Positions 13,845 to 35,894 are shown, numbered from the stretch's first letter. The stretch is 64,000 nt of DNA from an uncultured Lachnospiraceae bacterium (GCA_905233955.1 CAJOFQ010000006.1:6706-70705); one strand, 5' to 3'. Notes: generated by a model not told the origin, from the letters alone. Program-made: numbers and translations.

Positions 13845-14900
13845 ATGAACAAGAGAAAACTTATGGCACTGATGCTTGCAGGCGTCATGACTTTTGCAAT
13901 GAGTGCCTGTGGTGGAGCTTCTGGTACCAACGATGCTGACAACAGTGCATCTGAGGATACTGCAGCAGAGCAGACTGATGACAGCGCAGCAGATGAGGCT
14001 TCCGGTGATTCTTATACAGTAGGTGTGGTACAGTTAGTACAGCATCCTGCACTTGATGCTGCTACAGAGGGTTTTGAGGCTGCCATCAAGGAAGAGCTGG
14101 GAGATTCTGTTACAGTAGATGTCGAGAATGCAGCAGGCGATTCCGCACAGTGCGCTACCATAGCTAACGGTTTTGTAAGCTCCGGCTACGACCTGATCAT
14201 GGCTAACGCTACTCCGGCACTTCAGGCCGCACAGGCAGCAACTGCTGATATTCCCATCGTAGGTACCTCTATTACGGATTACGCTACAGCTCTTTCCATT
14301 GATGATTGGACAGGAACTACAGGCATGAACATTACAGGCTACTCTGATCTTGCTCCATTGGATGAGCAGGCAGACATGCTGGAGGAGTGGTTCCCTGTAG
14401 ACAGCTATCCTAATGTAGGTATTGTATATTGCTCTGCAGAACCTAATTCAAAATATCAGAGCACGGTTATTACAGAGGCTCTTGAGGGCAAGGGCTATGC
14501 AGTCAAGGAATACACATTTGCTGATACCAACGATGTAGCTTCTGTTGTGGATACAGCCTGCAAGGACAATGAAGTACTCTACATCCCTACAGATAATACG
14601 GCTGCAAGCTGTACCGAGAATATCCGCAATGTAGCAGTTCCTGCCAATACACCTATCATCTGTGGTGAGGAAGGCATCTGCCAGGGCTGCGGAGTTGCTA
14701 CACTTTCCATTTCATACTACGACATGGGATACCAGGCAGGTAAGCAGGCTGCTGACATATTAGCTAACGGCACTGACCCGGCTACAACCGAGATCGGATA
14801 CGCTACAGACCTTACTAAGGAATACAATGCCGAGATCTGCGAAGAGATGGGTCTTACACCTCTTGACGGATATGAAGCTATTGCAGTTAGTGAGGAGTAA
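13845..14900 (+). CDS. ABC transporter substrate-binding lipoprotein (ABC_sub_bind / PF04392-like)
   Basis: Signal peptide with lipobox MSAC, an acidic linker, then VGVVQLVQHPALDAATEGF.. and DLIMANATPALQAAQ.., typical of this SBP family. Permease and ATPase genes follow. Confidence 0.85.
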   Translation: MNKRKLMALMLAGVMTFAMSACGGASGTNDADNSASEDTAAEQTDDSAADEASGDSYTVGVVQLVQHPALDAATEGFEAAIKEELGDSVTVDVENAAGDSAQCATIANGFVSSGYDLIMANATPALQAAQAATADIPIVGTSITDYATALSIDDWTGTTGMNITGYSDLAPLDEQADMLEEWFPVDSYPNVGIVYCSAEPNSKYQSTVITEALEGKGYAVKEYTFADTNDVASVVDTACKDNEVLYIPTDNTAASCTENIRNVAVPANTPIICGEEGICQGCGVATLSISYYDMGYQAGKQAADILANGTDPATTEIGYATDLTKEYNAEICEEMGLTPLDGYEAIAVSEE

Positions 14901-14938
14901 AAAGGGTTTTTGCCATATGTAATTATGTTTCTTTAAGT

Positions 14939-14986
14939 GTAACTGTTCAAGACCGCCCTGGTTTTGGACAGTTACCTTTTGTTGTT
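14939..14986 (+). terminator. Intra-operon hairpin + U-rich tract (partial terminator/attenuator) between SBP and permease genes
   Basis: Stem GTAACTGTTCAA (14939-14950) pairs with TTGGACAGTTAC (14964-14975), with one G-U pair. CTTTTGTTGTT follows. Confidence 0.5.
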
Positions 14987-15024
14987 AGTTAGAATCAAAG
15001 TTGTCACAGACAAAGGATTTGGAC

Positions 15025-15963
15025 ATGGATATAACGGCACTTATTTCGGCTCTGCCGGGCAATGTCGCCCAGGGACTTATCTGGGGGATCATGGCGCTGG
15101 GAGTCTTTCTTACTTTTAAAATACTTGACTTTGCTGATCTGACTGTGGACGGCTCTTTGGCAACGGGAGGCGCAGTTACGGTTATGCTGATCCTGTCGGG
15201 CTGGTCTGCCCCGGCGGCGCTTGTTGCTGCATTTGCTGCCGGAATATTAGCAGGACTTGCTACAGGGCTGCTACATACGCTGCTTGGCATTCCTGATATT
15301 CTATCCGGAATTTTGCTTCAGTTGGCATTGTACTCCATCAATCTTAATATTATGGGTGGAGCGGCCAATATGGCTCTTCCTGTCAGTCAATACCAGCTGC
15401 TTGTTTCGCTCAGGTACATTGTTCCGACCATTATGGTTGTTGCAGGGATAGTTATTGTGCTGATTTCCGTCATGTATTGGTATTTCGGAACTGAGCAGGG
15501 AAGCGCGATCCGTGCCACCGGAACTAATCCGGCCATGAGCCGGGCCCAGGGTATCAATATTGACCTTATGAAGGTTATAGCACTGGCTCTTTCCAATGGT
15601 ATGGTGGCTTTTTCAGGCGGACTTTTGTCCCAGTATCAGGGCTTTTCAGATATCAATATGGGTCGTGGAGCGATAGTCATTGGCCTTGCCGCGGTTATCA
15701 TAGGCGAGGTTATCGGCAACGCCCTCTTTGGCAAGAGGATGAATTTCATTATCAGGCTTTTGTTTGTGGTGTTTGGAGCAATTTTGTATTACATCGCCAT
15801 AGGTGTTGTATTGTGGCTTAGGATGCCGACCAACAACCTTAAGATGTTTACCGCTATAATAGTAGCATTGTTTTTGGCTGTTCCCCATCTGAAGGACAAA
15901 GCTAACAATTCCTTTGCAAAAGCGGGAAGGAGGGGAGAGAGCATCCATGATTCAGCTAACTGA
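15025..15963 (+). CDS. ABC transporter permease (partner of the PF04392-type SBP)
   Basis: Polytopic membrane protein. ATG 15025 is preferred over the TTG at 15001. It overlaps the downstream ATPase gene. Confidence 0.85.
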   Translation: MDITALISALPGNVAQGLIWGIMALGVFLTFKILDFADLTVDGSLATGGAVTVMLILSGWSAPAALVAAFAAGILAGLATGLLHTLLGIPDILSGILLQLALYSINLNIMGGAANMALPVSQYQLLVSLRYIVPTIMVVAGIVIVLISVMYWYFGTEQGSAIRATGTNPAMSRAQGINIDLMKVIALALSNGMVAFSGGLLSQYQGFSDINMGRGAIVIGLAAVIIGEVIGNALFGKRMNFIIRLLFVVFGAILYYIAIGVVLWLRMPTNNLKMFTAIIVALFLAVPHLKDKANNSFAKAGRRGESIHDSAN

Positions 15964-16744
15964 TATCAGAAAAACCTTTAACCCCGGTACTATTAATGAG
16001 AAGCTCGCACTGGACGGAGTGTCTCTAACTATGAAGGAGGGGGACTTTGTCACCGTTATAGGCGGCAATGGGGCAGGTAAATCTACCATGCTGAACGCCA
16101 TAGCAGGCACCTGGCCCGTAGATGATGGAAGTATAGTTATAGATGGTATCAATGTCACCGGTTTATCCGAGTACAAGAGGGCAAAATACCTTGGCAGAGT
16201 ATTCCAGGATCCCATGACAGGAACTGCTGCAAGCATGGGGATTGACGAGAACCTTGCACTGGCAGCCAGGCGCGGAAGGATGCGCGGACTGGGCTGGGGC
16301 ATTCATAAAAAGGAACGGGAGGAATACCGCAAGCTCTTGGCAGAGCTTAATCTGGGACTTGAGGATAGAATGACCAGTAAGGTAGGTTTGTTATCTGGCG
16401 GCCAGAGGCAGGCGCTTACACTTCTCATGGCGACCCTGCAGAAGCCCAAGGTATTGCTTTTAGATGAACATACAGCGGCTCTTGACCCTAAGACCGCAAA
16501 GACAGTGTTAGAGACGACCCAGCAGATCGTGTCCGAGCATCAGCTTACCACCATGATGGTAACTCATAATATGCGTGATGCCATTCACTATGGTAATCGT
16601 ATTATTATGATGAATGAGGGCAGGATAATACTGGACATTTCAGGAGTAGAGAAGAAGAACCTCACTATAGAGGATCTCCTCCACAAATTCGAGGAAGTAT
16701 CCGGTGAGGAGTTCACTAACGATCAGGCTATTTTATCGAAGTAA
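15947..16744 (+). CDS. ABC transporter ATP-binding protein
   Basis: ATG 15947 is preceded by GGAAGGAGGGGAG. GGNGAGKST Walker A, LSGGQRQ signature, and LLLDEHTAALD Walker B. Confidence 0.9.
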   Translation: MIQLTDIRKTFNPGTINEKLALDGVSLTMKEGDFVTVIGGNGAGKSTMLNAIAGTWPVDDGSIVIDGINVTGLSEYKRAKYLGRVFQDPMTGTAASMGIDENLALAARRGRMRGLGWGIHKKEREEYRKLLAELNLGLEDRMTSKVGLLSGGQRQALTLLMATLQKPKVLLLDEHTAALDPKTAKTVLETTQQIVSEHQLTTMMVTHNMRDAIHYGNRIIMMNEGRIILDISGVEKKNLTIEDLLHKFEEVSGEEFTNDQAILSK

Positions 16745-18361: not shown

Positions 18362-20431
18362 ATGAGCAGACTTGTACGCCTGATGGCAGGCTTGAATCCA
18401 CCATCGAATGATGGTCCTGATAAGAATAACGGTTCTAAAGGGAATCCCCCCGGTGGAAGCGGGCCTAAAAGCCCGATGTCCATGTTTGTGCTTTTTTCCA
18501 TAATAGCTCTCTTGGCTACACATTACATGTACAACTCCTTCAGCGGCAGCACCGATCCGAAGGAGATGTCATATTCTACATTCATTAACCTTGTCAAGGA
18601 GGGACAGGTTGAGAGTGTAGAGATTGAGACCAAGAAAATCAATATTACACTCAAGCCGGATACAACCTATCAGGGTGGGGAAGCTGCTGTCGGTAAAGTC
18701 TCTTCAGATGCTGCACAGGGTATTACAACCTCCAAGCAATTGGAATACTACACCAATTTCATACCCGATGATTCTTTGCTTGAGACATTGGAAGAACACG
18801 ATGTGGAGATCAATGTCGCCAAGGAAGATAATACAGCGGCTATTATCTACAACCTCATAAGCTTTATTCTGCCGGTTGTGCTGTTGATTGGATTTTATGC
18901 TTATCTTATGCGCCGTTCAGGCGGCAATCCTTTCTCTGTAGGACGAAGCACAGCCAAGGTCTATGTGGAAAAATCCACGGGAGTTACCTTTGCTGATGTG
19001 GCAGGTCAGGATGAGGCCAAGGAATCCTTGCAGGAGGTGGTTGATTTTCTGCATAATCCGCAAAAATACACAGCCATCGGAGCAAAGCTTCCCAAGGGAG
19101 CGCTCCTTGTGGGACCTCCGGGAACAGGTAAGACATTGCTGGCCAAGGCTGTCGCAGGAGAAGCAGGCGTTCCCTTCTTCTCTCTGGCAGGCTCTGATTT
19201 TGTGGAGATGTTTGTAGGTGTGGGAGCGTCTCGTGTCCGTGATCTCTTCAAGGACGCCCAGAAAGCTGCCCCATGCATTATATTTATTGACGAGATTGAC
19301 GCTATTGGTAAGAGCCGTGACTCCCGTTATGGCGGCGGCAATGATGAGAGGGAGCAGACCTTGAATCAGCTTCTGGCTGAGATGGATGGATTCGATACCT
19401 CCAAGGGACTGCTGATCCTGGCAGCTACTAACCGCCCTGAAGTATTAGACAAGGCATTGCTTCGCCCGGGACGCTTTGACAGGCGTATAATAGTTGACAG
19501 ACCTGACCTTAAGGGGCGTCTTGAGACATTAAAGGTTCACTCCAAGGATGTTGCCCTTGATGAGACAGTGGATCTGGATGCAATGGCTCTGGCTTCAGCA
19601 GGTCTGGTGGGATCTGATCTTGCCAATATCATTAACGAAGCAGCTATTATAGCTGTTAAAAACGACAGAAAATATGTCAATCAAAGTGATCTTTTCGAGG
19701 CCTTTGAGCTTGTGGCTGTTGGAGGCAAGGAGAAAAAAGACCGGGTTATGAGTGAAAAGGAACGCAGAATAGTTTCCTACCACGAGGTTGGACATGCTCT
19801 TGTTTCGGCTCTTCAGAAGAATACCGAGCCTGTTCAGAAGATCACCATAGTACCCAGAACAATGGGAGCTTTGGGATACACGCTCCAGACTCCTGAGGAA
19901 GAAAAATATTTAGAGACAAAGGATGAGCTGCTTGCCAAGATCACTACCTTTATGGCAGGCAGGGCAGCAGAGGAGCTGGTATTTGAATCCTCTACAAGCG
20001 GTGCTGCTAATGACATCGAGAAAGCCACATCCATTGCCCGTAATATGGTTACCAGATTCGGTATGAGCGAGCATTTTGGAATGATGGGGCTTGCAACAGT
20101 TGAAAGCCAGTATCTGGAAGGTCGTGCTGCCCTTACCTGCGGCGAGACTACTGCAAGCGAAATAGACGGCGAGGTACTTGGCATTATAAATGACTGCTAT
20201 AACAAGGCGTTTAGTCTGCTGGATGAGAACCGCAGTGTATTGAACGAAATATCTGATTACCTGTACAAACAGGAGACTATCACCGGCAAGGAATTTATGG
20301 AGATGTTCAGGAACCTTACGGGTATCGAGGAAGAGGAAAAAGACGAGTCTCCTTCTGATGAGGATATGTTCGAGGATGAGGAATCCGAAGAGAACACAGT
20401 AGGCAGACATGTAGATCTGGTGGCGGAATAA
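18362..20431 (+). CDS. ftsH: ATP-dependent zinc metalloprotease FtsH
   Basis: [18 protein letters not shown] Walker [17 protein letters not shown] zinc motif. Also a low-complexity N-terminal tail and an acidic C-terminal tail. Confidence 0.95.
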
Positions 20432-20455
20432 AATCACAGATGGGAGGAGTGCTTA

Positions 20456-22690
20456 GTGTTTACAAGAAGTGTCTTTTGTCGTGTACTAATAATACTTTGT
20501 ATAATTATGATACTTTTTACCACGGCACTCACCACATTATCCTACCGCAGGATGCAGGCGGATACATATGTACACGACGGGGTACTTAATACAGTAAGCA
20601 CCGTAAGGAAGCTTAATTATTCATTGAGTTTTGGGAAGCCTCTGGACAAATATTACGGTCTTAAGGAACTTCTTGAAGAGGTAGAAGAGCTTTCCTGGGA
20701 TATCACAGGTGTTTGTATCACAGATCTTGAAGGAAATGTCATAGAAAGCACCGGTGAAGAGATCAGTGGTATCACATTACAAAATCCCGATAACGAGTAC
20801 CTGGTAAGAAGGGACGGAGTTTATGCCTTCGTCCCTTTTGATGCGGGTAATATCATAATCAAACAGAACATAAGTGTGATCAATGACCGGACAAGGGATT
20901 ATCTTAAATTTTTATGGGGCATTGATGCATTGATCCTGCTGGCGGTAATTGTGTCAGCACTGATTACATCCCTTGTCGCGTCCTCTAATGGCATATCATT
21001 AAAGCGTTTCAAAATAACAAGTATTCTGATACTGGTAACGGCGCAATCCCTCCTGGGTGTTTTGTCCATGCGCCATCTTGATAATTCCTATCAACAATCT
21101 ATAGCAAGGATTGCCGAGACTACCTCTCTTACCGTGGAGAGGGATATCAATGCAGTTATAGAAAAGGGTGTTCCTTATGGACAGCTTAAGGGTCTTGATG
21201 GCTATCTATCTAATCTGGTAGACGATATACCGGAGCTTTCCAATCTGTCGCTGGGAATGCAGACCCAGGCTACTCAAAATGACATGACAGGCTTTGATCT
21301 TGATATTGACGGTATGGACAGTGGTGCTGTCAGCCTTCTATGTTACTATGACAAAGAGCTTATACATTCACAGAGGATCAACAATATTATTGATATTCTT
21401 ATCCTTGTTTTGATAACTGTCTTTATAAGTCTGGAGGCGTCTACATTTCTGACCAGGCATATGGAAATGAAAAGTGAACGAAAAAAAGGTCAGCTTTATC
21501 TGCCCGGCTTTCGGCTTTTTGTCTTTATACAGGGAATTACATTTACATTGGATGTAGGCTTTTTCTCCGTCTTGAGTGCAAAGCTTTTTAGAGCGATGGA
21601 GCTGCCCCAGTCCATGTCTTTTTTAAGCGGTATGCCAAACACCATGTACTCGGTGGCTGTGCTCATAGGCCTACTGGGGTGCAGCTCTTTGATACGCCGT
21701 TTTGGTATGAAGCGAATGCTGATCTTCGGTATAGTAATGGGCATCGTTGGTTATGTGCTGTGTGCCCTTGCCGTCAACCTGTCGCTTTTGATAATGGCAC
21801 GCTTCGTCTATGGCTTCTGTGACGGTATCATAATCAATTCCATACGGCTTTATGCCTCGTCTCAATCTGACCCCAAGATGCATACCAGGATTCTGGTGGA
21901 ATACATGGCTGCCGCCAATCTTGGAGTAAGCTGCGGCGTAGTGATCGGAGGTCTGATAGCTGATGTGGCATCCTATACCTTTGTTTTTGTTACAGGTGCG
22001 CTGCTTGGTATAGTATGTCTCTTTCTCATATTGTTTGCAGGCTTCCCTGACAGGCAGGAGGATGGCGATAAGATGTCATTCCTTACGGCTCTTAAGGAAA
22101 TGAAAAAACCAAGGGTCGCGCTTTTTATGATTGCAGCAGTCATTCCTGTTTACATTGCCACATTGTTTGTTGCGTTTACCTTTCCGCTGTTTGGTGACGA
22201 AGCGGGCTTTTCCAATTCCATGGTCTCCGGTTGCCTGATGCTTAATTTTATTATAGTTGCTTATCTGACGGATCCCATCTCTGATTGGGTAATAAAGAGA
22301 GTCAGACCGGATATAGCTATGGGAATATATATGCTGCTTCAGACCGCCAGCATAGGTGTTTTTGTGTTATCAGGGAGCGTTTGGGCTGCTATACTGGCAC
22401 TTGTTCTGACAAGTCTGTGGGATTGCTTTGGCATGGTGGTAATGGACCTGGCACTTGATCATGTGGAGGGTACATCCACGGAAAAATGTACGCTCCTGCA
22501 AATGCTATTCGGAAAATTTGGTCTGGTCGTAGGACCGGTTGCCATCACTTCATGGCTGGGCAAGGGAGCAGCGGGCGCAACCGGCGTCATCGTTATAATA
22601 ATGCTGGTTGGAGCTCTAATATACGGAAGTTCCCTGGTATTCGGTTACCATTCACAGCTTCGTAAGCCGGATGAAGGAATTAAGGAGTAG
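20456..22690 (+). CDS. Fusion protein: N-terminal membrane-anchored extracytoplasmic sensor-like region (~330 aa) + C-terminal MFS transporter (~12 TM)
   Basis: GTG start 7 nt after GGGAGGAG, only 24 nt after the ftsH stop. TM1, then a ~125-aa loop with Cache/PDC-like character (..ITDLEGNVIESTGE..), then 2 TM, a second ~110-aa loop, then an MFS-like body. Confidence 0.75.
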   Translation: MFTRSVFCRVLIILCIIMILFTTALTTLSYRRMQADTYVHDGVLNTVSTVRKLNYSLSFGKPLDKYYGLKELLEEVEELSWDITGVCITDLEGNVIESTGEEISGITLQNPDNEYLVRRDGVYAFVPFDAGNIIIKQNISVINDRTRDYLKFLWGIDALILLAVIVSALITSLVASSNGISLKRFKITSILILVTAQSLLGVLSMRHLDNSYQQSIARIAETTSLTVERDINAVIEKGVPYGQLKGLDGYLSNLVDDIPELSNLSLGMQTQATQNDMTGFDLDIDGMDSGAVSLLCYYDKELIHSQRINNIIDILILVLITVFISLEASTFLTRHMEMKSERKKGQLYLPGFRLFVFIQGITFTLDVGFFSVLSAKLFRAMELPQSMSFLSGMPNTMYSVAVLIGLLGCSSLIRRFGMKRMLIFGIVMGIVGYVLCALAVNLSLLIMARFVYGFCDGIIINSIRLYASSQSDPKMHTRILVEYMAAANLGVSCGVVIGGLIADVASYTFVFVTGALLGIVCLFLILFAGFPDRQEDGDKMSFLTALKEMKKPRVALFMIAAVIPVYIATLFVAFTFPLFGDEAGFSNSMVSGCLMLNFIIVAYLTDPISDWVIKRVRPDIAMGIYMLLQTASIGVFVLSGSVWAAILALVLTSLWDCFGMVVMDLALDHVEGTSTEKCTLLQMLFGKFGLVVGPVAITSWLGKGAAGATGVIVIIMLVGALIYGSSLVFGYHSQLRKPDEGIKE

Positions 22691-22701
22691 ATGCAAAGAT
22701 T

Positions 22702-23874
22702 ATGAGAAAAAGATATACAATAATCGCAGCAGCCAGTGCGCTGTGTCTTATTATAACCATATCAGCCTGCGGTATCACATCTTTGGGTTTTGGCGGTACT
22801 AATGTTGTTAATGCCGCTCCATTGGTCAGGATCGGTTATGTCCAGACAAGAGAATACGGTCCCTTCACCCAGGTTCTTTTAGCTACAGCCAGAGAGTTAG
22901 TGGCTCAAGGCTGTCTTTCCAGGTCATTTTTGGATAAATATAAGGATGCTAATTTTGAAGAGCATTTCAGCGACGGAGATACAAAAAAGCTGTGGGATGA
23001 TATATGTGATGCGACGGTGGAAGGCGCTTCATACCAGTTTTCACCGGAGGCATTTTTTGATATGAATACCATGTCGGAGGATGAATACCCTTCAATGGTT
23101 AATCGCAGTGATGTGGATATTACTTTTACAATGGGGACAGACCCAAGTGTGTATTTTTTTGAAAATGAAAAGAAAAACAAATTCATGAGTCTTTATGCTG
23201 CGGATCCCATACAGTCCGGAATTGTAAAGAGTACGACTGAGCGTTATACGGATAATTCTTATGCACTTATGGATCTGACGCCCTATCTTCGACAGCTTGA
23301 TGCGGGCTATAAGTTTTTGAAATTTAAAAAACTTGGCGTAGTTTATGAAGATTCCCGGGCTGCCTATGATTATTCGGACATAAGGGAGATCGAGCAGAAA
23401 GCGAAGGAGCATGGATTTGAGGTGGTCTATGAGCATGTCAATGAGCCTGTGTCTGAAGATGATTTCGAACGCTATTACAGTGAATTAAAACAGGCCTATC
23501 GCAGTCTTGTGGACAAGGGGATTGACTGCCTTTATGTTACCATATCCTCTATCAATTATGAGGAAAAAATGCAGGAGCTTTTAGATGATGCGATCATTCC
23601 GGCAGGGGTTTATTCCCTGGCTCAGGATGATGTGGCTCCTGTGGCATATGGAGTTTTGTTCGGGATGAGCATAAGCGATGCCGAGGAAGTGGCTGCCTAT
23701 GTATTCAAACAGATCAGGCTGTATGCCGAAGATGGGGTACCCTTTGACGAGCTTGATATGGTATATGAGTGTACGCCTAAGATTGCACTGAATTATACTA
23801 CGGCACAAAGGGTAGGTTTCGACCTTACTTTTGAAGATCTTCAACTGGTGGACAGGATCTATAAGAATGAGTGA
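22702..23874 (+). CDS. Orphan SBP-like lipoprotein (distant ABC_sub_bind/PF04392-like fold)
   Basis: Signal peptide with lipobox ISAC. VRIGYVQTREYG.. and LKFKKLGVVYEDSRAAY.. resemble the two lobes of the SBP encoded at 13845. No adjacent ABC permease or ATPase. Confidence 0.55.
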   Translation: MRKRYTIIAAASALCLIITISACGITSLGFGGTNVVNAAPLVRIGYVQTREYGPFTQVLLATARELVAQGCLSRSFLDKYKDANFEEHFSDGDTKKLWDDICDATVEGASYQFSPEAFFDMNTMSEDEYPSMVNRSDVDITFTMGTDPSVYFFENEKKNKFMSLYAADPIQSGIVKSTTERYTDNSYALMDLTPYLRQLDAGYKFLKFKKLGVVYEDSRAAYDYSDIREIEQKAKEHGFEVVYEHVNEPVSEDDFERYYSELKQAYRSLVDKGIDCLYVTISSINYEEKMQELLDDAIIPAGVYSLAQDDVAPVAYGVLFGMSISDAEEVAAYVFKQIRLYAEDGVPFDELDMVYECTPKIALNYTTAQRVGFDLTFEDLQLVDRIYKNE

Positions 23875-26800
23875 GAGTAATAGAATGAAAATTAAAAAGA
23901 CTTTATATCCGGACCGTATTAGATCTGCCATAAAAAGCTTTGGCAAAAACCTGGCTTTATCCTTTGGGGACAGAAGATACAGCTATAACGATCTGGATAG
24001 TATTACGGGGCGATTGGCTGCGTATCTGATATCACAGGATATCGGCTGCGGGGATATCGTCTCTGTTCTTATATCCCGAAATGAATATATTACCATTGCG
24101 CCTCTTGGCATAATCCGCAGTGGTGCAGCATATCAGCCTCTTGATATCTCACATCCCACCGATCGTATCCGCAGTATGATTGAAAATGCCGGATCACAGA
24201 TTGTTATAGTGGAAAAAGAGTATGAGCATCTGTTGGATGATGTGAACTTTGGAACTGACAGAAAAAAGCTCTATATCGAAGATATACCGCTCCTGCCAGA
24301 GCCTGAAGAAGGTCCCTGGCCGTATGCCGATCCGGAGGATGACTTTGCAATATTGTACACCTCAGGTTCCACGGGAGAACCCAAAGGGATAGAGATAACA
24401 CATAGAAATATAATTAGCCTTCTGGACTGGTATATCGACTATTATGGTGTGGATGAAAACAGCCGGATAGGTCAGCATACCAGCTATGTTTTTGACCCTG
24501 CCATTGCGGAATCCATGCTGCCTCTGGCTGCAGGAGCTGCAATTTTTATTATTCCGGAGGAGATCCGGACGGATCTGTTTTTGCTGGATCGCTTTTATAA
24601 TGAAAACAAAATAACCCACGCATCACTGACGACCCAGCTGGGGCGTCAGTTTGCCATGCATATGGAGGGAAGAACCCTTAAGCATCTTGTGGTAGGCGGA
24701 GAGGCATTAATGTCTGTTGCGCCTCCAAAGAATTACACCCTCCACAACGGTTATGGTCCTGCAGAAGGAACCTTACTGATTACCATATTTGCTGTTTTGA
24801 AGGAATATCCCAACAAGGTTCCTCTGGGCAGCCCTCTTCCAGAGGTTAAGATCTATCTTTTAGATGAGAAGGGCAGACAGGTTTCTGACGGCCAGCCGGG
24901 AGAGCTGTGCTTTGCAGGAGCTCATGTTACAAAGGGCTATCTGAACCGCCCGGATCTTACCGCAAAGGTTTATACCGTCAACCCATTTTCTGACGATCCC
25001 GAATACAGCAGGCTGTATCATACGGGGGATCTGGTAAAAAAGGACGCAGATGGATACTACGAATATCTGGGAAGGATCGACCGGCAGGTTAAGATCCGTG
25101 GATTTCGTATCGAGCCAGCCGAGATAGAGGCTATTCTCAAAGGCTGTGAAGGCATAGATGACGCAGTTGTGGTTCCCCTGGATATGGGAAATGAAAAAAT
25201 GCTGGCGGCCTATTATCTTTCAAATGCTTCAGTGGATGAGAAACTGCTGTCGGATCTGATATTGTCCCAAAAGCCATCCTACATGCTGCCTTCGTTTTTC
25301 ATACATATGGATTCTTTTCCGCTTACCATTAACGGGAAAATAGATTATAACGCTCTGCCAGGACCCATGCGCGAAGCAACCAGCCAATACGAGGAGCCAA
25401 AAAGTGATACTGAAAGGGTTTTGGCCGGGCTGTACCGCGATATATTGGGCATAGAACATGTTGGACGGCAGGATAATTTTCTGCACCTTGGCGGTACATC
25501 CATGTCGTCGGCGATACTTTTATATAATATTTTCGATGCCTTTTCCTGCCGGATCGGTATAAGGGATATAATGGAGCATCCCGTACTTTATGATCTGGCA
25601 GACAGGATCGATGAGAAGCTTTTGTCAAAGGAGACTGATAATATCAGCTTCGAACAAAAATTACTGCCCTTGCAGGCTGAGTACGATGTAAGCTATTCGC
25701 AAAATCGTATGTTTACCGCCCAGGAGCTTTTGGGTTATGACGATCCTACATATCTTTTGCGACTAAAAATATCTATAGATGGCGCATTTGACAAATCAAG
25801 GATACAGAATACGATAAAGGCTTTAATTCTGCGTCATGAAAGCTTAAGGACAGAATTTTTCATTTCACAAGACAGCTTAAAGCAAATTATAGTAAAGCCC
25901 ACAGAAGCATGGCTTAATGACGCGGTTATTAGAACCGAAGACAGGGACCTTTTCCCTGGATTTTCTATGGAGGAAGCACCACTTTTTGCATGGAGCGCAT
26001 CTGAAAATGAGATTGAATTTCAGTGGCACCATATCATAAGCGATGGAGTCAGCAGTTCGCTTTTTGCACAGGAATTTATTGAGGCTTATAACGGTAATAC
26101 CCTCCCGCCCCTTAGGGTTCATCAAAAAGAATACGCCGAATACGAAAAACAATACATGGCTTCCCCGCTATATAAAAAGAGCCTGGATAGCTGGAGAAAT
26201 TATTCTTCCGATCATGTTGATGCAGAAGAAATCAAGCTGCCCCAGGATAATACATTTTTACCGGGGATGGAGCGTATAGCAGGCCATTTTAAGAGTGTTC
26301 TTCCAAAATCGCTTTCCGAAGAGATCAATATTTTTTGCCATGAAAAAAACATAACGGTATATATGTTTTTGCTTTCTGTTTTTTCCATACTGCTTCACAG
26401 GTATACCCGGATGGAGAAGTTGATACTTGGAACGGTTATGGATGGCAGAAATGAACCCGGTACTGATAAGCTGCAGGGTATGTTTGTAAATACGCTGCCC
26501 TTATTTATTACAGTAAGTGATGATTATTCCATATCAGATTTTTACAGTAAGATTTCTGAGATTGTACTTTTTTCCATGGAGAATCAGTCCGTACCATTGG
26601 AGGAAATTGCAGACGCTTTTTCCAGAATGGGAGGATACCAAAGGACTTCCCGTGGGAGCTTATTATTTGATTATTTATTCGTACTTCAGAATTTTAAGAA
26701 CCAGGTTGAGGATATTGACGGATGTGAAGTAAGCCTGGAATATGGTGACGGCGGCAGAGCGATGTACGATCTGACCCTTGAAATGGAGGAAATGGAGGAT

Positions 26801-29800
26801 GGATTCCACTGTGATTTTGAATATTGCAGGGGGTTGTTTTCTGAGGAAAGTATCCGAGTATTTGCTCATCATTTTGATGTGCTGCTTTTAAATTGCCTAA
26901 GTTCAAGTGACAAACAGACTATAGGCTCTCTATCTGTCATTGATGAAAATGAACAAAAAAAGCTGCTCTATGATTTTCAGGGAGTGCCCTTGGATGAAAG
27001 AGCTTTGGTATATACAGTAGTTGATCTTTTGAGGGATCGTGCAAGAGAAAATCCAGACAGCACTGCTGTGGTTTTTTGTGATGAAGCTCTGTCCTACAGG
27101 GGATTGTGGGACAAATCAGGTTTACTTGCCAATAAGTTAAATCAATTATTTGACCAAAATACAGAAAATCATGCAGTCATTTTCGCAAATCGGGGAATAT
27201 CCATGATTACCACAATATGGGCTGTACTTCGGGCAGGGGGAGCGTATGTCCCGGTGTCGCCGGAGTATCCTGATGAGCGGATAAGCTACATACTTGATGA
27301 CTGTGATGCTGTATGTGTTATAGAGTGTGACGCTAAGGTACCTGATGCCGTAAGAGAACTTTTGTCACAGAGGAATATTCCTGTAATCTCAGGGAACGAC
27401 TTAGGTGATACAGTTGAGTTTCATGATGGCTTGCAACATGAGGTGCAAATACATGAAAATAAGCTTCCGGGCTATCAAATACATGGCTCAAACGCTTCAG
27501 GGATAATGCTTCAAAAGGACTCCGAGGCTTATATGATATATACCTCCGGAACTACCGGAGAGCCTAAGGGAGTTGTAGTAAGTCATGGCAACCTTTCAGC
27601 CCTGCTTTTTGCCTACAATGATATATACAAACTGACACCACAGGATGCTGTGCTGCAATTTGCGGATTTTGTTTTTGATCAATCCGTATGGGAGATCTTC
27701 CACATTCTGACAGTTGGCGGAACACTTTGCATGATTACTTCCGATATGGCCCGTGATCCGCAAAAGCTGTCTTATTATTGTAATAAAAATCATGTCACGG
27801 TATCCATGCAGACACCGGGTTTTTTGCGGCTTTTAGACCCTGATGAATTCAAGGGTATAAGGCTTGTAGATGTGGGTGGAGAGGCTCCTGATTATAAGCT
27901 TCTTAAGGCGTGGTCAAAGGGCAGAACCGTTTTAAACACCTATGGCCCCACTGAGACTACGGTAAATGCCGCAAGCTATATCTTCAGTGAAAATGGCAGG
28001 CAATTAACGGCTGAAAAAGACAATGTTCCCATAGGAAAACCGATTGACGGAACACGCATTTATATTTTAGACGGGGATCGGCTGTGCGGCATTGGTATGC
28101 CGGGAGAGCTGTGTATTGCCGGTGCCCAGGTGACCCTGGGATATTACAATAGACCACAGCTTACCGGGGAGAAATTTGTTAAAGATCCGTTTTTTGACGG
28201 AGCAATGTACAGGAGCGGTGATCTGGCAAGGTACCTTCCTGATGGAAATATCGAATTTTCAGGCCGCATAGACGATCAGATCAAACTTCGGGGATACAGG
28301 ATAGAGCTGGGGGAAATTGAATCCGCCATTAGAAGGGTTCCCGGAATAAAGGATGCCGTTTGTACCCTGCAGGATACCGGTGATAATAAGACCCTGTGCG
28401 GGTATTATATTTTAAATGATACAGATACTGCTGTTACGGAGGATGAGCTTCGACAGCTTTTATCGGAGCAGCTGCCCTCATACATGGTTCCGGTTCATTT
28501 GATGCCCCTTTTGGAATTTCCACTTACAGTATCCGGCAAGATTAATAAAAGGGCTCTGCCAAAATTCGATATGGTCTGGCAGGATGGTGACGAGGGTGCC
28601 AAAACCGATATAGAAAGAGACCTTGCGGATGCCTTTGCTGCTGTACTGCAGCTTGAGCGGGTAAGTGTTACTGCGGATTTTATAGCACTTGGAGGCGATT
28701 CCATTAAAGCGATTCGTATAGTCTCGCTGCTCAGGGAAAAGGGCTACCATCTTAGTGCAGGTCATCTCCTGAAAAACAGTACAATAAGGTCAATTGCACC
28801 TCTTTTAAAAAAGACGGAGGGCATTTCCTATAAAGAGTTTGACCATGTATCGCCCACTCCGGTAATGAAGCTGTTTTTTGCTGCCGATATGCCAAATTCC
28901 CATTGGTATAATCAGTCAGTTATGCTTTTGATGAAAAATTATCCGGGCGAGAATGCCCTTAATAATGCCTTATCCGATCTGATCAGTGCTCATGGATGCT
29001 TAAGGATGATACGGAAGGATGGGGGTATTGTAATAAGGGATATTTCCAAAATGCCAAGTGTCAAGCTTGCTGTCTTCGAAAATTGCACTAAGAGCAAAAG
29101 AGAGGATATCTGCACCCGTTTACAATCCTCTATGGATCCGGACAACGGCATTGTAATGCAGGCAGCCATATTTAAAAATGACAATGAACACAGACTGTTT
29201 CTGGCCTTTCACCACCTTGTTATAGACGAGGTGTCATGGGGGATAATTCTGGAGGATCTTGACAGGCTTTTAAACCACGAAGCTTTGTATGACAGGACAA
29301 TATCATTTGGTGAATGGTCAAAAAAGCTTTGGTCCTATTCTAAGTCAGATGATTTTCTTTCTGAGAAGGCTTACTGGATGAGACAGTACAAAGAGCTAAA
29401 AAAACATGACAAGGACATACAAAGCTGGCTTTCATCTTATGAAGACTTAAATACTCAAAAAACCGGTTTTTCATCCTTATCTCTGTCGGTTTCAGATGAT
29501 ATGGCGCAAAAGCTTTCTTCAATTGCAGCATTAAAATATCAGTCCGGTATGGACGCTTTTTTGCTTGCAGTTTTGATACATACGATTAAATTACACGACA
29601 ATATTTCTTCAATTTCTATTCAGATGGAAAGTCATGGAAGGGGCAATATTGGCGATGTGCATTGCGATCGTACAGTGGGCTGGTTTACTGCTTTGTATCC
29701 GGTTTTGTTTGATGTGGCGGATACATTTGACGAGCAGATCGTTGTTGTAAAAAAAGCTCTTTTGGATGTACCAAACTACGGAATCGGATACGGATTGTTA

Positions 29801-32800
29801 TACGATGATCTGTTTCGGCAGGGTGGTATTGTATTTAACTATCTGGGTAATGAAAGAAAAAATACCTATGATAATTTTGGATTTGCAGGGGAGAGCAGCG
29901 GACTTGATATGGATGCCGCCAATGGTGATCCATATACCATTTCCATAGACATCCGTCAGGATGAGCAGGGACTTTTCATAGATGCCTGGTATGACAATGC
30001 TTTTGACGGCGTAGAGATCAAAGGACTTTTGAACTTCTATAAGTCAAAGCTTGAGGAAATATCAGAGCTTGTTCCTGACAAAAATAAGATCTATGCTCCC
30101 AATGATCTTTGTGCGGACTCCGGGATGTCACTTTCGGACTGGTACAAATTGACACAGAGGTTTTTGCCGGAAAGTGTTATGGCAATCGCCCGTCTTACAC
30201 CGCTGCAGCAGGGGATGCTCTACAGATATATCGCCGAGCCGGAGGGCAGGGCGTATTTCCTGCAGGATAAGCTTACGATATCAGGCGTATTGCAAAAAGA
30301 AAAGCTTAAAGCTGCACTTAAATTATTGTCTTTAAGATACGACGCGTTAAGAACAGTTTTTTTATACGACAATCTGGATGAACCCTGGCAGATAATATTA
30401 AAGGAACGCACTCCGGAATTTGTGGATATGTCAGATTTAGCTTTTTCTGATGTGCTTGCAATTGACGGGAAAAGAGGTTTTTCCCTGACAAAAGATCCGC
30501 TTATGCGCTTAACAGTCTGCAAACAGAAAAATGGTTCAGCAGAGATTTTGATCTCCATGCACCATATGATAACGGATGGCTGGAGTTTTCCGATTTTAAC
30601 CCGCAAGCTGATGGAATATTACAGGGATCTGTGCAGCGGTGCGGATGAGAGTATCATTGCCGGGCAGGTAAAAAAAGAGGCAGCAGATAACTGTTCCTTT
30701 ACAGATTATCTGAGATATTGCGCAGGATTAAACAGACCCAAAATCACGAAAAAATGGGTAGAATATCTGCAGGGAGCAGATGAAGGCGCGGCTCCTTATG
30801 TTTTTGATCCAGATAATAGTGATACTTTTATTTTCGCAGGGCGAAGCTTTCGTATCAGCAGGGAAATGGAAGATCGTATCAGGGCGTACACAGTCCAAAA
30901 TCATATTACCACAAGCAGCTTTTTCGGAGCGCTTTGGGGAATATTGCTGGGTTTTGAAAGCGGTGTGGAAAATGTAGTTTTTGCAGAGACTCTTTCAGGG
31001 CGCAATGCGGATATTGCCGGAATTGAGTCGGCGGTTGGAATATTCATACATACTATTCCTGTTTGCATCAGGCTAAGGGACAGTAAAACTGTGCTTGATC
31101 TCATGAAAAAAAGGCAGGAGGACTACATATCCATGCAGCCCTATGAGAATGCTGCCTTAAGTGAGATCGGCGCTGCAACAGGCTTTGGTTCTGCGCTGAT
31201 AAGGTCGTTATATGTATACGAGAATTATCCGGTGGAGGATGAAGCTGATTGGTATCATATAAATGGAATTCATGAGGAAGTGGATTACGCGATTACCTTC
31301 TGTGTGGAGGAAACAGATGGTATATCTTTGAATCTGCTGTTTGATGAGAATAAATATCACAGAGATTATATCGGACTTTTGATGGACAGGCTGATATATC
31401 TGGCACATCAGGTTCTGACGGATGAAGCCGTTACTGTTTTTTCCCTTGATCGTATTACACCAGAGGAGCAGAAACTAACGCTTTTAAATCTGGCAGGGGA
31501 GAATATGGATTTTCCGAAAAAATCCTTCCCCGAAATGTTTTTTGACCAGGCAAAAGACGACCCATCCAGGAGCGCTCTTTTGATGGATGGAAAAACCATA
31601 AGCTACGGCAAGCTCTTGAATGCTTCATGCGGACTGGCAAAAGAGATTGGACCAGGGGAAGAGAGATTTATTGCTGTAATGGCTGACAGAGGTTTTGAAC
31701 TTATAGCAAGCCTCATTGGAACGATGCTGGCAGGAGCAGCTTATGTGCCGTTGGATCCTGATTATCCTGTAGAGAGAATCAGGTATATACTTAATGACTG
31801 TGTTCCTACTTGTGTGCTTTATTATGTTAAGGAAGAACAGCCTGATGTCAGAAATTTGTTTGAGGAATATGATATTCCTGTTATTTCCACACCCATTGAT
31901 ACATTTGAATCCAAAGATCATACCTTTAAGCCAGGACAAAAGCTTATGTGTCGTCTGGCATATATGATCTATACATCAGGGACTACCGGCGAACCTAAGG
32001 GCGTTGAGATTGAACACTGCTCCCTGTCGGATATGATCTATGCCCATGAGGTTCGTTTTGGCAGCTTGTATAATGATACGGTTCTTTTTATGTCAAATTT
32101 TGTTTTTGACGCGTCTGTGCAGCAGATATTTACGCCTCTTGCCCAAGGCGGCAGAGTATGTATCATAACAAAAGAAAGGATGAACTCGTCAAAGGAGATC
32201 GCCCAATATTGCAGGGACAACAATGTTACCTTTATTGGTGCGACTAATGCGCTGCTTAGAATACTTTCCCCGGCGGATTTTGATGGTATCAGGGTTCTAA
32301 GCATCGGAGGTGATGAGGCGGATCCTGGGCTGTTTGAAAAATGGTCTCATTATTCTAAGCTTATTATCAATGACTACGGGCCCACAGAAGCTACCATACA
32401 TGCCATTTCCCATGCTTATACATCCGGGGAGAAAAGGCCTGTGCCTCTGGGAAAACCCTATCCAAATAAGCGGATATATATTATGCAGGGTGACAAGCTG
32501 TGCGGTATAGGGCAGCAGGGGGAGATCTGTATAGGTGGAAAGGGTTTGGCCAGAGGATATCACGGCAGACCGGAGCTTACAGACAGGCATTTTGGACCGG
32601 ATCCCTATTCTGATGGCAGGATATATCGTACAGGGGATCTGGGATTGTATCGCCCGGATGGGCAGGTGTTATTCAAGGGCAGAAATGATTCTCAGGTCAA
32701 GATCCGGGGATTTAGAATAGAATTACAGGAGATTGACAGCTGCCTTATGTCCTATGACGGAATAAAAGATGCTGTGACGATATGCAGGCAGGAAAAGAGC

Positions 32801-34105: not shown

Positions 34106-35894
34106 CAATCACAAAAAAGTAAGTCTAATAACAAAATTCATTGTAATGTTTACTGTCTTTGGAGTAATATCCACGCTGGTAAGCGGGATATTTACCTTTA
34201 TGACACAGACCAGGATCTACCACAATGAATGCGAGAGTAATCTTAAAAATATCACAGATCAGTTGAATTCAATGATACAGGATGACGGCGAGGATTTCAT
34301 TGATGTTTTGGATTACTTCAAGGAGCACAGAGACGAGATGCATATTAAGCCGGAATCAGCCGGTGATTATCAGCCGGAGCTTTTGGCATTTCGTAAATTA
34401 TTCGCCCAAAAATATCCGAATAAGACTTACGGAGTGGATATTACTTTTTCCGAAATGGATGATGATCTGCAGAAGGTTTATGCAGAATATAAGGTGGATT
34501 ACTGGATGACAATGTTTTCTCAGGCGTCAGAATCCTTTAACCTTGCGTACACCTATTTCATCTATCCTGATCCTGAGCCGGACATCACTTATTTTATCGA
34601 TCCCCTTCCGGAAACAAAGGAGGTCAATGGTGAAGAGTACTATTCACTTGGATTTCACGGTTTTGAAGATCCCGAAAAATATAAAATGGTGTGGGAGGCA
34701 TGGCACACCGGCAAGAATCCCTCGGGCTTCGATGTCTTTGATAATGAGTTCGGATATACTTACGCTTATTATTCTCCGGTCTGGATTGACAGTGAAGAGA
34801 TAGGTCTTGTCTGTGCTGAAATATCCGTGGAAAGGGTTCACAGCACCATAATACACGATGTGCTGCTCTTAAGTACAGGGATGATCGTTGCTATCGTGAT
34901 CGGCATTTTTATTATGGTCATGTTGCTGCGCAAGATCTTTTTGTACAGGATTTTAAATCTCGAAAAAAATATTGCGCTTTACTCGAATTCCAAGGATGTA
35001 TCCCTGGCCGGAGCTATACAGCAGCAGGAACAGGGGGATGATGAGATCAGAAGCCTGTCCGACCAGTTTGCGTCCATGATTACTGAGTTAAAGAATTATA
35101 TGGACAATCTGCAGCAGGTTACTGCTGAAAAAGAGCGTATTGGAGCTGAGCTTTCCGTGGCTACCACTATCCAGGAGGGTATGTTGCCGCGTATTTTCCC
35201 ACCCTATCCTGACCGAAAGGAATTTGATCTTTACGCATCTATGGATCCTGCCAAGGAAGTGGGAGGAGATTTTTACGATTTCTTTATGGTGGATGAGGAT
35301 CATATTGCGCTGGTAATGGCTGATGTATCCGGCAAGGGTGTCCCTGCGGCGCTTTTCATGGTAATTGCCAAGACTCTTATTAAAAATGCCGCCCAGATGG
35401 GAAAAGACCCTTCTGAAACTTTGGAATACGCCAATGACCAGCTCGCCGACAATGAAGGACAGATGTTTGTTACTGTATGGATGGCAATAATCGAGATATC
35501 CACAGGCAAGGGAATAGCAGCCAACGCCGGACATGAGCATCCTGCCCTCAGGCATGAAAATGGCAAATACGAGCTTGTGGTTTACAGACATTCTCCGGCA
35601 GTGGCTACGATGGAGGGTATTCCCTTCCGTCAGCACGAGTTTGAGCTTCAGCCGGGAGATTCGCTGTTTGTATATACTGATGGTGTGCCGGAGGCGACTG
35701 ACGCCCATGACGAACTTTTTGGAACGGATCGTATGATAGAGGCCTTGAATCAGGATCCTGACGCCTCCCAGGATGTGGTGCTTGCCAATGTACGAAAGGC
35801 AGTGGACGCCTTTGTTAAGGATGCTCCGCAGTTTGACGATCTTACCATGCTGGGTTTCAAGTATTACGGGGTCGAAGGGAAACATGATTCATGA
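34098..35894 (+). CDS. Transmembrane receptor-type PP2C (SpoIIE/RsbU-like) Ser/Thr phosphatase with extracytoplasmic Cache-like domain and HAMP-like linker
   Basis: TM1 (aa ~12-35), a ~220-aa loop (..GYTYAYYSPVWIDSEEIGLVCAEISV..), TM2, an amphipathic linker, then PP2C motifs GGDFYDFF (~35262), ADVSGKGVPAALFM and DGVPEA. The ATG overlaps the NRPS stop by 8 nt. Confidence 0.85.
   Translation: MHNNHKKVSLITKFIVMFTVFGVISTLVSGIFTFMTQTRIYHNECESNLKNITDQLNSMIQDDGEDFIDVLDYFKEHRDEMHIKPESAGDYQPELLAFRKLFAQKYPNKTYGVDITFSEMDDDLQKVYAEYKVDYWMTMFSQASESFNLAYTYFIYPDPEPDITYFIDPLPETKEVNGEEYYSLGFHGFEDPEKYKMVWEAWHTGKNPSGFDVFDNEFGYTYAYYSPVWIDSEEIGLVCAEISVERVHSTIIHDVLLLSTGMIVAIVIGIFIMVMLLRKIFLYRILNLEKNIALYSNSKDVSLAGAIQQQEQGDDEIRSLSDQFASMITELKNYMDNLQQVTAEKERIGAELSVATTIQEGMLPRIFPPYPDRKEFDLYASMDPAKEVGGDFYDFFMVDEDHIALVMADVSGKGVPAALFMVIAKTLIKNAAQMGKDPSETLEYANDQLADNEGQMFVTVWMAIIEISTGKGIAANAGHEHPALRHENGKYELVVYRHSPAVATMEGIPFRQHEFELQPGDSLFVYTDGVPEATDAHDELFGTDRMIEALNQDPDASQDVVLANVRKAVDAFVKDAPQFDDLTMLGFKYYGVEGKHDS

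Follow-up and report, generated by a model that had tools for sequence, protein, structure and literature searches.

A major facilitator superfamily protein with a sensor-like N-terminal module and its PF04392-type lipoprotein: a candidate binding-protein-dependent transporter in gut and rumen Lachnospiraceae

In the literature that we searched, TRAP, TTT and TAXI-GltS are the only secondary transporters named as dependent on a binding protein (PMC5812351, PMC12344293). In each of them a secondary carrier is served by a binding protein, soluble or tethered, and one operon holds the genes of both (PMC5812351, PMC9352664, PMC12344293). TRAP (P, Q and M of DctPQM) and TTT (C, B and A of TctCBA) combine a small membrane part of four transmembrane (TM) helices with a large one of twelve, as separate or fused proteins. 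Here we describe a gene pair of similar layout in a 64,000-nucleotide stretch of DNA from an uncultured Lachnospiraceae bacterium (GCA_905233955.1, CAJOFQ010000006.1:6706-70705; hereafter the window). The first gene (20456–22690) encodes a protein of 744 residues and 16 TM helices, in which an N-terminal module of four TM helices and two ectodomains (the N-module) is fused to a 12-TM core of the major facilitator superfamily (MFS); the second (22702–23874) encodes a lipoprotein of 390 residues with a predicted two-lobe type I fold. All features located below are on the + strand of the window. The source genome is a metagenome-assembled genome, 66% complete, with a single copy of the transporter family. 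We read the pair as a binding-protein-dependent MFS transporter that works in uptake, analogous to TRAP and TTT, a reading for which we see about equal grounds for belief and for doubt.

The parallel with TRAP and TTT is architectural only, as no homology to their parts (DctP, TAXI, TctC, DctQM, TctBA) was detected in comparisons with Pfam, NCBIfam and PDB sequences. The carriers DctM, TctA and GltS are of the elevator type, whereas the carrier here is a rocker-switch MFS protein, and the binding proteins DctP, TctC and TAXI contrast with the PF04392 type I fold of the lipoprotein. DctQ and TctB have no folded ectodomains, whereas the 4-TM element here has two, of ~110–125 residues.

Other systems resemble single features of the pair. 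The PF04392 binding proteins CD0873, TrpX/SP1069 and VC_1101 of ATP-binding cassette (ABC) importers are the top structural matches of the lipoprotein and are matched by its family profile too, and CD0873 shares the design of a lipoprotein with a linker (PMC6816091). The ligands of solved PF04392 relatives, which deliver to importers, are Tyr, Phe and Trp (PMC6816091, PMC9382623). Such proteins pair with an ABC permease and ATPase, whereas the constant partner of the lipoprotein here is the N-module–MFS protein. In mycobacteria, LprG-Rv1410 is a conserved two-gene operon of an MFS protein and a lipoprotein that act at the outer membrane face (PMC6519032, PMC10576003). However, LprG binds lipids and has another fold, Rv1410 lacks the 4-TM extension with two ectodomains, and the substrates, triacylglycerides and lipoglycans, are moved outward. 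In LuxP-LuxQ and TorT-TorS, a pair of α/β ectodomains flanked by TM helices docks a type I binding protein, and UhpC is an MFS-like sensor that acts with UhpB. The N-module has the same ectodomain layout within one chain, and signalling genes recur near the pair; the output of LuxQ and TorS is a kinase, whereas here it is an MFS carrier without a cytoplasmic signalling domain or a match to any Cache, PAS or PDC model. No description of PF04392 or ABC_sub_bind together with MFS was found in the searchable literature, and the TAXI-GltS paper makes no mention of MFS; coupling of a binding protein to an MFS carrier therefore looks undescribed.

Architecture of the two proteins

The transporter gene starts with GTG, 25 nt past the ftsH stop codon (20429–20431), and a Shine–Dalgarno-like GGGAGG (20441–20446) can be read about 8–9 nt before it. 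In Pfam, the 744-residue protein matches MFS_1 (PF07690) alone, at residues 391–694 (88.2 bits against a cut-off of 33.4, E = 6.7e-25). By hydropathy, four extra TM helices (residues 10–28, 156–174, 187–205 and 314–332) precede this core and enclose loops of 127 (29–155) and 108 residues (206–313). Segments rich in Lys and Arg lie at residues 1–9, 175–186 and 333–353, and by the positive-inside rule both loops therefore face outward and the MFS core begins on the cytoplasmic side, as usual. An AlphaFold2 (AF2) model based on 42 homologues (pLDDT 80.7, pTM 0.77) has the same layout. Both loops begin with the outward prolongation of a TM helix. One or two short helices come next, then an antiparallel sheet, of five strands in loop 1 and of three in loop 2, and finally a helix that leads back into the membrane as the following TM helix; the 12 MFS helices come after the N-module. 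The initial annotation had described a sensor-like N-terminal extension joined to a 12-TM MFS core, and the open reading frame, hydropathy, Pfam and AF2 all agree with that description.

The N-module can be followed helix by helix along the gene. TM1 (20483–20539) is part of an AF2 helix at residues 4–44. In ectodomain 1 (20540–20920), AF2 places helices at residues 47–58 and 69–79 and five strands within residues 83–137. TM2, a short cytoplasmic turn rich in Lys and Arg, and TM3 (20921–21070, by hydropathy and AF2) lead to ectodomain 2 (21071–21394), with an outward extension of the TM3 helix, a helix at residues 247–257 and three strands within residues 261–298. TM4, assigned by hydropathy (21395–21451), contains a membrane-embedded glutamate, E327. 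The hallmark of ectodomain 1 is the motif Y55-x4-G60-K61-x6-G68 (20618–20659), and its counterpart in ectodomain 2 is D230-x7-G238. Among 220 diverse family members, G60-K61 is conserved in 97%, G238 in 95%, Y212 in 91%, G68 in 89% and Y55 in 85%, and the TM residues Q197 (TM3) and E327 are kept in ~80% and ~75%, respectively. An hhalign comparison of the two halves of the N-module gave a weak match (E = 0.005) with these conserved motifs in register (LNYxLSFGKPLxKxYGLxxLL in half 1, INxVIxKGVPYxxLxGLxxYL in half 2). The N-module is for this reason an internal duplication of one unit, composed of a TM helix, a helical stalk, a small α/β ectodomain and a second TM helix, and as one chain it resembles the ectodomain dimer of a sensor kinase. 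Free-standing 4-TM proteins of 311–329 residues are also found among the matches of the N-module profile. They terminate in ..L(I/T)EYxxF.., and the Glu of this ending may correspond to E327.

The first 345 residues have no match in Pfam, NCBIfam or the PDB sequences, and the N-module profile retrieved only noise from the PDB sequences. The initial annotation had called the extension Cache-like. No Cache, PAS or PDC sequence model matches the N-module, in Pfam or NCBIfam at E up to 1 or among PDB sequences at E up to 10. In the AF2 model the elements follow the order helix-helix-helix and five strands in loop 1, and helix-helix and three strands in loop 2; strands 2 and 3 have no helix between them, and this predicted order is compatible with a small α/β domain of PAS/PDC type. 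A Foldseek search with the whole 744-residue model returned MFS structures only, and was hence uninformative on the N-module.

The 12-TM MFS core (residues 349–735, 21500–22660) is supported by Pfam, by its twelve AF2 helices and by Foldseek, in which its matches were NorA, SPNS2, sialin, VMAT2, DgoT and MdfA (TM-score on target 0.65–0.82). The scores for NorA, MdfA and SPNS2, 0.75–0.82, indicate the twelve-helix, two-lobe MFS fold.

The lipoprotein begins with a signal peptide and lipobox (residues 1–23, 22702–22770; lipobox I-S-A-C23), followed by a disordered linker (residues 25–37). In its AF2 model (pLDDT 90.4) the rest forms two lobes of the type I fold. With E = 1.3e-18 to 7e-15 and a TM-score on target of 0.71–0.77, 6hnj, 3lkv, 6hni and the two chains of 3lft are the five top Foldseek matches of the model, and a profile of the lipoprotein family matches the PF04392 structures 6hni (1.5e-5), 3lkv and 3lft. 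The window's lipoprotein itself falls below every Pfam threshold and gives no PF04392 match, and in a pairwise BLAST comparison the PF04392 protein of the window (13845–14900) was no match (E = 1.5). However, that protein matches the hidden Markov model (HMM) of the lipoprotein family at 3.6e-6, with positions in common such as T146, D191, Q198, G212-V-Y215 and N364. The N-lobe of the lipoprotein has diverged or holds inserts, its conserved Y46, G70 and W98 having no counterpart. The PF04392 threshold is reached by partners more distant from the window, such as the protein of locus L044 (48 bits against 25.9) and several clusters in the precomputed list. Predicted fold and profile mark the lipoprotein as a divergent binding protein of the PF04392 kind (type I, cluster B). 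It has no gene for an ABC permease or ATPase beside it at the window locus, nor have its relatives at any of 110 related loci, and the initial annotation, which had recognized a PF04392-like lipoprotein without an ABC partner, was right on both points.

Between the two genes, a four-codon mini-ORF, ATG CAA AGA TTA TGA (22691–22705), is read from the sequence; it bridges the transporter TAG and the lipoprotein ATG, with an ATGA overlap. An AAGGAG at 22682–22687 stands 3 nt ahead of the mini-ORF ATG and 14 nt ahead of the lipoprotein ATG. The arrangement could be a termination–reinitiation relay. A scan for promoters and terminators yielded nothing usable in the tightly packed genes of this region.

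Pairing, fusion and splitting of the genes

The 744-residue layout is that of a family. Assemblies of Lachnospiraceae, Butyrivibrio and Eubacterium contain at least 50 clusters of ~740 residues, with 47–72% identity, which are annotated, where named, just as "MFS transporter". An exhaustive search with the N-module profile gave 483 representatives at 50% clustering, nearly all of 700–830 residues and composed of N-module and MFS core. In an even sample of 399 genomes of the class, the N-module was present in 3, so that the family is low in frequency and patchy.

The survey covered 110 loci from species-representative genomes, public assemblies, one further genome of the class and metagenomes, and the GK motif of ectodomain 1 and the TM5 motif served as retrieval patterns; counts from this survey describe a targeted retrieval and not prevalence. 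Pairing was counted over the 85 loci that have a full-length transporter gene and either room on both sides or a neighbour. The binding-protein HMM of the survey was widened with neighbours that the survey itself had found, and the identity of the binding proteins rests independently on Pfam matches (L003, L004, L044) and on the fold search. A binding-protein gene is directly adjacent or fused to the transporter gene in 83 of the 85 loci (51 upstream, 27 downstream, 5 fused), and the two exceptions are second tandem copies, which makes the pairing obligate. The two proteins have also diverged together, with a correlation of 0.915 between their distances over 74 pairs, a value reached in none of 999 permutations.

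The five fused cases, from metagenome loci, are triple fusions of 1110–1143 residues with 44–85% mutual identity, in which N-module (~1–340) and MFS core (~350–745) are followed by an extra TM helix and the binding protein (~770–1140; E = 1e-85 to 1e-95). In them the former signal peptide acts as a 17th TM helix and so places the binding domain outside. The opposite, split form occurs in L046 and L047, in which a binding protein (375 residues), a 4-TM protein (322 residues) and an MFS core (394 residues) are encoded by overlapping genes. A tripartite logic of binding protein, 4-TM element and 12-TM carrier is found split, paired or fully fused. Adjacency, triple fusions, the split three-gene form and co-divergence make it clear that the two proteins work together.

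Several side observations concern these variant forms. The triple-fusion genes lie at 5570–8947 in L090, 4589–7921 in L092, 803–4135 in L093, 5225–8653 in L095 and 8932–12363 in L107. Each has a Ddl-like ATP-grasp ligase gene before it and a PP2C gene after it, and together they are one clade, sister to the locus type with Ddl-like ligase, C39-peptidase ABC exporter and Calx-beta protein. In L046 (2–6820 of a Logan contig of 6983 bp) the split set, whose genes overlap by a few bases, is accompanied by a GNAT gene and is flanked upstream by STAS and dCache_1-PP2C genes and downstream by an RsbW-like kinase gene. P0224 (1496 residues) continues beyond N-module and MFS core with cytoplasmic C-terminal GAF domains. 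P0150 (1176 residues) and P0240 (1240 residues) were considered as further binding-protein fusions and rejected (hhalign probability <1%). P0240 has a second N-module GK motif and P0150 is matched by the N-module profile in four stretches, and it appears from this that in both the MFS core is preceded by N-modules in tandem. Shorter paralogues adjoin the main pair in L065, L067, L069, L077 and L078 (625–653 residues), in L114–L117 (~362 residues) and in L096 and L099 (399 residues), and some of them appear to be proteins of N-module only or MFS core only.

Gene neighbourhoods of the pair

In the window, the lipoprotein gene is followed by a gene for a trimodular non-ribosomal peptide synthetase (NRPS; 23867–34105), whose ATG overlaps the lipoprotein stop codon (ATGAGTGA). 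The NRPS has adenylation (A) and thiolation (T) domains at its start, a Condensation-family domain after module 2 and a thioesterase (TE) at its end. Its domains are compatible with the order A-T-C-A-T-E-C-A-T-TE of the initial annotation, in which C is condensation and E a candidate epimerisation domain. Next comes a receptor-type PP2C phosphatase of the SpoIIE family (34098–35894), with TM helices at residues 14–32 and 255–273 around an outward domain of ~220 residues. This domain has no Pfam match, and a comparison of it with the N-module gave no significant relatedness. Related clusters have dCache_1 or 5TMR-LYT N-termini instead, so that the phosphatase changes its sensor part from lineage to lineage.

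In a tree of the transporters, the window falls in a well-supported clade A of 19 rows, all from Lachnospiraceae-type rumen or gut assemblies. The gene order of this clade is transporter, binding protein, NRPS, usually with overlapping genes, and the NRPS directly follows the pair in every surveyed locus that reaches beyond the lipoprotein gene. Of five genomes examined, three have a full-length orthologue of the window PP2C straight after the NRPS and a fourth has one on a contig not tied to the locus; a search of the fifth at E = 1e-20 or better found none. Three loci have a dCache_1-HAMP-PP2C gene ahead of that for the transporter. In the sister clade (14 rows from Oscillospiraceae and other Clostridia, 28–31% identity) the order is binding protein, transporter, with housekeeping genes around and no other conserved neighbour. 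In a large environmental group, the commonest order is binding protein, transporter, GNAT acetyltransferase, and the pair has no NRPS; a second, independent NRPS link is found in one environmental locus, L064, with the order PP2C, binding protein, transporter, GNAT, RsbW, NRPS.

The initial annotation had proposed a transporter for the NRPS product. Co-occurrence with NRPS genes holds throughout clade A but extends to just 21 of the 110 loci, and as a general role this proposal is not supported: the NRPS is confined to clade A and L064, and is missing from the sister clade and the environmental group. For this reason the NRPS link is secondary, the pair being older than the NRPS and independent of it.

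Other neighbours recur across the 110 loci. GNAT acetyltransferase genes were found in 35 loci, SpoIIE-type PP2C genes, many with a 5TMR-LYT sensor, in 23, and alanine racemase genes (alr model, 211 bits) in 19. C39-peptidase ABC exporters occur in about 18 loci, an orphan Peripla_BP_6 binding protein in 13, an HlyD-like protein in 12, and RsbW-like kinases and Ddl-like ATP-grasp ligases in 10 each. Contractile-injection-system genes (CIS13, Baseplate_J, Tail_P2_I) are present in 6–8 loci. In L051, L061, L079, L098, L103 and L105, such genes (Baseplate_J, Tail_P2_I and the CIS13 family) lie upstream and abut the pair with its GNAT, alanine racemase and MORN-repeat protein genes, and in L044 (1813–7306) the genes so placed are Pvc16_N and an AAA ATPase; the association thus recurs in several lineages. 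A conserved block of Ddl-like ligase, orphan Peripla_BP_6 protein, HlyD-like protein and two C39-peptidase ABC exporters lies directly upstream of the pair in L080, L082, L101, L112 and L113 and in L020 and L021; these loci go on with either a giant Calx-beta protein or an NRPS, the latter in two rabbit-gut Lachnospiraceae.

Uptake, export or sensing

In the uptake that we favour, the tethered lipoprotein would capture a small ligand, presumably of amino-acid or short-peptide type, at the outer leaflet. Once loaded, it would dock on the two ectodomains, and would then either gate the MFS core or supply it with the ligand, for import coupled to protons; of these steps, the direction of transport is the most conjectural. 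In clade A, the pair would work as part of an operon with the tripeptide NRPS and the receptor PP2C phosphatase, and the ligand in the window's genome is probably the NRPS product, which would be recaptured, or a precursor of it. Uptake is favoured because, to our knowledge, binding-protein folds serve uptake or sensing and not export, and because the ligands of the solved relatives of the lipoprotein, which serve importers, are aromatic amino acids. In the sister clade the pair stands bare amid housekeeping genes, as would be expected for nutrient uptake, and the layout of 4 + 12 TM helices, split or fused, mirrors TRAP and TTT (PMC5812351, PMC9352664).

Several observations weigh against uptake. 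The antiporters NorA, MdfA and VMAT2 are as near in fold to the MFS core as the symporters sialin and DgoT. TM5 contains G490-x3-G494-x3-G498-G499-L, which is like antiporter motif C, the TM5 motif of DHA1/DHA2 drug:H+ antiporters, although this sequence (G-x3-G-V-x2-G-G-L) is without Pro. The NCBIfam matches of the core are efflux families, every one far below its curated cut-off (TIGR00880, 50 against 131; TIGR00711, 39 against 230), and solved MFS structures match weakly by sequence, the nearest being sialin at 3e-4. Biosynthetic and export neighbours (NRPS, Ddl-like ligase, racemase, GNAT, C39-ABC exporters) are frequent, which fits an exporter, and the recurrence of PP2C, RsbW and STAS genes beside the pair fits a role in signalling. 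An assignment of transport direction from homology was rejected, since among solved MFS proteins the sequence comparison gives weak matches of mixed kind.

These observations immediately raise the question of what else the pair could be. It might simply be a coincidence, either because the lipoprotein is a spare binding protein of an ABC importer elsewhere or because the 744 residues are two genes joined by error. A complete PF04392 ABC system (binding protein, permease and ATPase, 13845–16744) does lie 5.5 kb upstream in the window and could be such an owner. However, the same fusion recurs in at least 50 close clusters and in the 483 representatives, a binding-protein gene stands beside the transporter gene or is fused to it in 83 of 85 loci, and none of the surveyed loci has an adjacent ABC permease gene. 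From the pairing, the fusions, the split form and the co-divergence, we consider both mis-assembly and ownership of the binding protein by a distant ABC system to be excluded, and leave to coincidence in any form only the slightest of chances. The initial annotation, which had itself raised the possibilities of a frameshift or assembly artefact and of an ABC system elsewhere, had described a fusion that is real and conserved. An exporter with a surface acceptor deserves more weight. Here the MFS core would expel a cytoplasmic product by proton antiport, namely the NRPS tripeptide in the window and elsewhere the product of racemase, Ddl-like ligase and GNAT, and the lipoprotein and ectodomains would receive, hold or pass on this product. 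The fold matches to NorA, MdfA, VMAT2 and SPNS2, the efflux families of NCBIfam and the glycine motif of TM5 speak for it, as does the place of the pair directly before the NRPS in clade A and beside Ddl-like ligase, alanine racemase and GNAT in other clades. The latter loci recall small peptide-antibiotic clusters in which an MFS exporter is combined with immunity by acetylation, as in bacilysin (BacD/BacE) and microcin C (MccC/MccE). Against export, the lipoprotein has the fold of a two-lobe binding protein and not of a lipid carrier, no exporter with such a fold is known to us, the pair of the sister clade has no biosynthetic gene nearby, and the efflux-family scores all fall far short of their cut-offs. 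An operon of MFS protein and lipoprotein has its precedent in LprG-Rv1410 (PMC10576003, PMC6519032), and with all these points in the balance we consider export rather unlikely, though a rival to be taken seriously.

It is also conceivable that the pair is a sensor, or transceptor, in which the loaded binding protein docks on the 4-TM module and the MFS core mainly relays a signal within the membrane to the receptor PP2C of a partner-switching pathway, much as in LuxP-LuxQ or in UhpC with UhpB. SpoIIE-type PP2C genes adjoin the pair in separate clades and with varied N-termini (dCache_1, 5TMR-LYT, and that of the window), RsbW-like kinase genes recur, the three-gene set of L046 is enclosed between STAS/PP2C and RsbW genes, and one representative carries C-terminal GAF domains. 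The layout of the N-module as a single-chain copy of a sensor-kinase ectodomain dimer points the same way. Yet in most loci, among them all those of the sister clade, no PP2C gene is near the pair. The transporter is without an output domain in the cytoplasm, its MFS core retains the conserved motifs that an active carrier should have, and the PP2C proteins own separate sensor domains. We therefore judge a mainly sensory role to be unlikely.

Returning to uptake through a binding protein, we propose tentatively, and with somewhat more doubt than conviction, that the family constitutes an MFS-based class of binding-protein-dependent secondary transporter, in which a pseudo-dimeric, sensor-like 4-TM element would form a docking and gating platform for a tethered PF04392-type protein. 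Such a class would be widespread in anaerobic Bacillota and environmental anaerobes, and repeatedly wired to partner-switching PP2C and to genes for small peptides and D-amino-acid chemistry, namely those for an NRPS with a candidate epimerisation domain, alanine racemase, Ddl-like ligase and GNAT. Its place may be in a circuit for small-peptide signalling or defence that has not been described so far, as the arm for uptake and sensing.

If this is true, the pair would represent a new class within secondary transport that depends on a binding protein, as neither TRAP nor TTT nor, since 2025, TAXI-GltS has a carrier from MFS, the largest family of secondary transporters. It would also raise a mechanistic question: how could a rocker-switch carrier be handed its ligand by a binding protein? 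For electron cryo-microscopy, the natural triple fusions offer samples in a single chain, and for transport assays the stand-alone pairs offer minimal two-gene systems. Hundreds of annotations as "MFS transporter" or "hypothetical lipoprotein" in gut and rumen Clostridia could be corrected, and "orphan" PF04392 proteins would gain a partner. For the NRPS clusters of rumen Lachnospiraceae, the pair marks a conserved partner in transport or sensing, which could make it easier to find out what the tripeptide product is and what it does.

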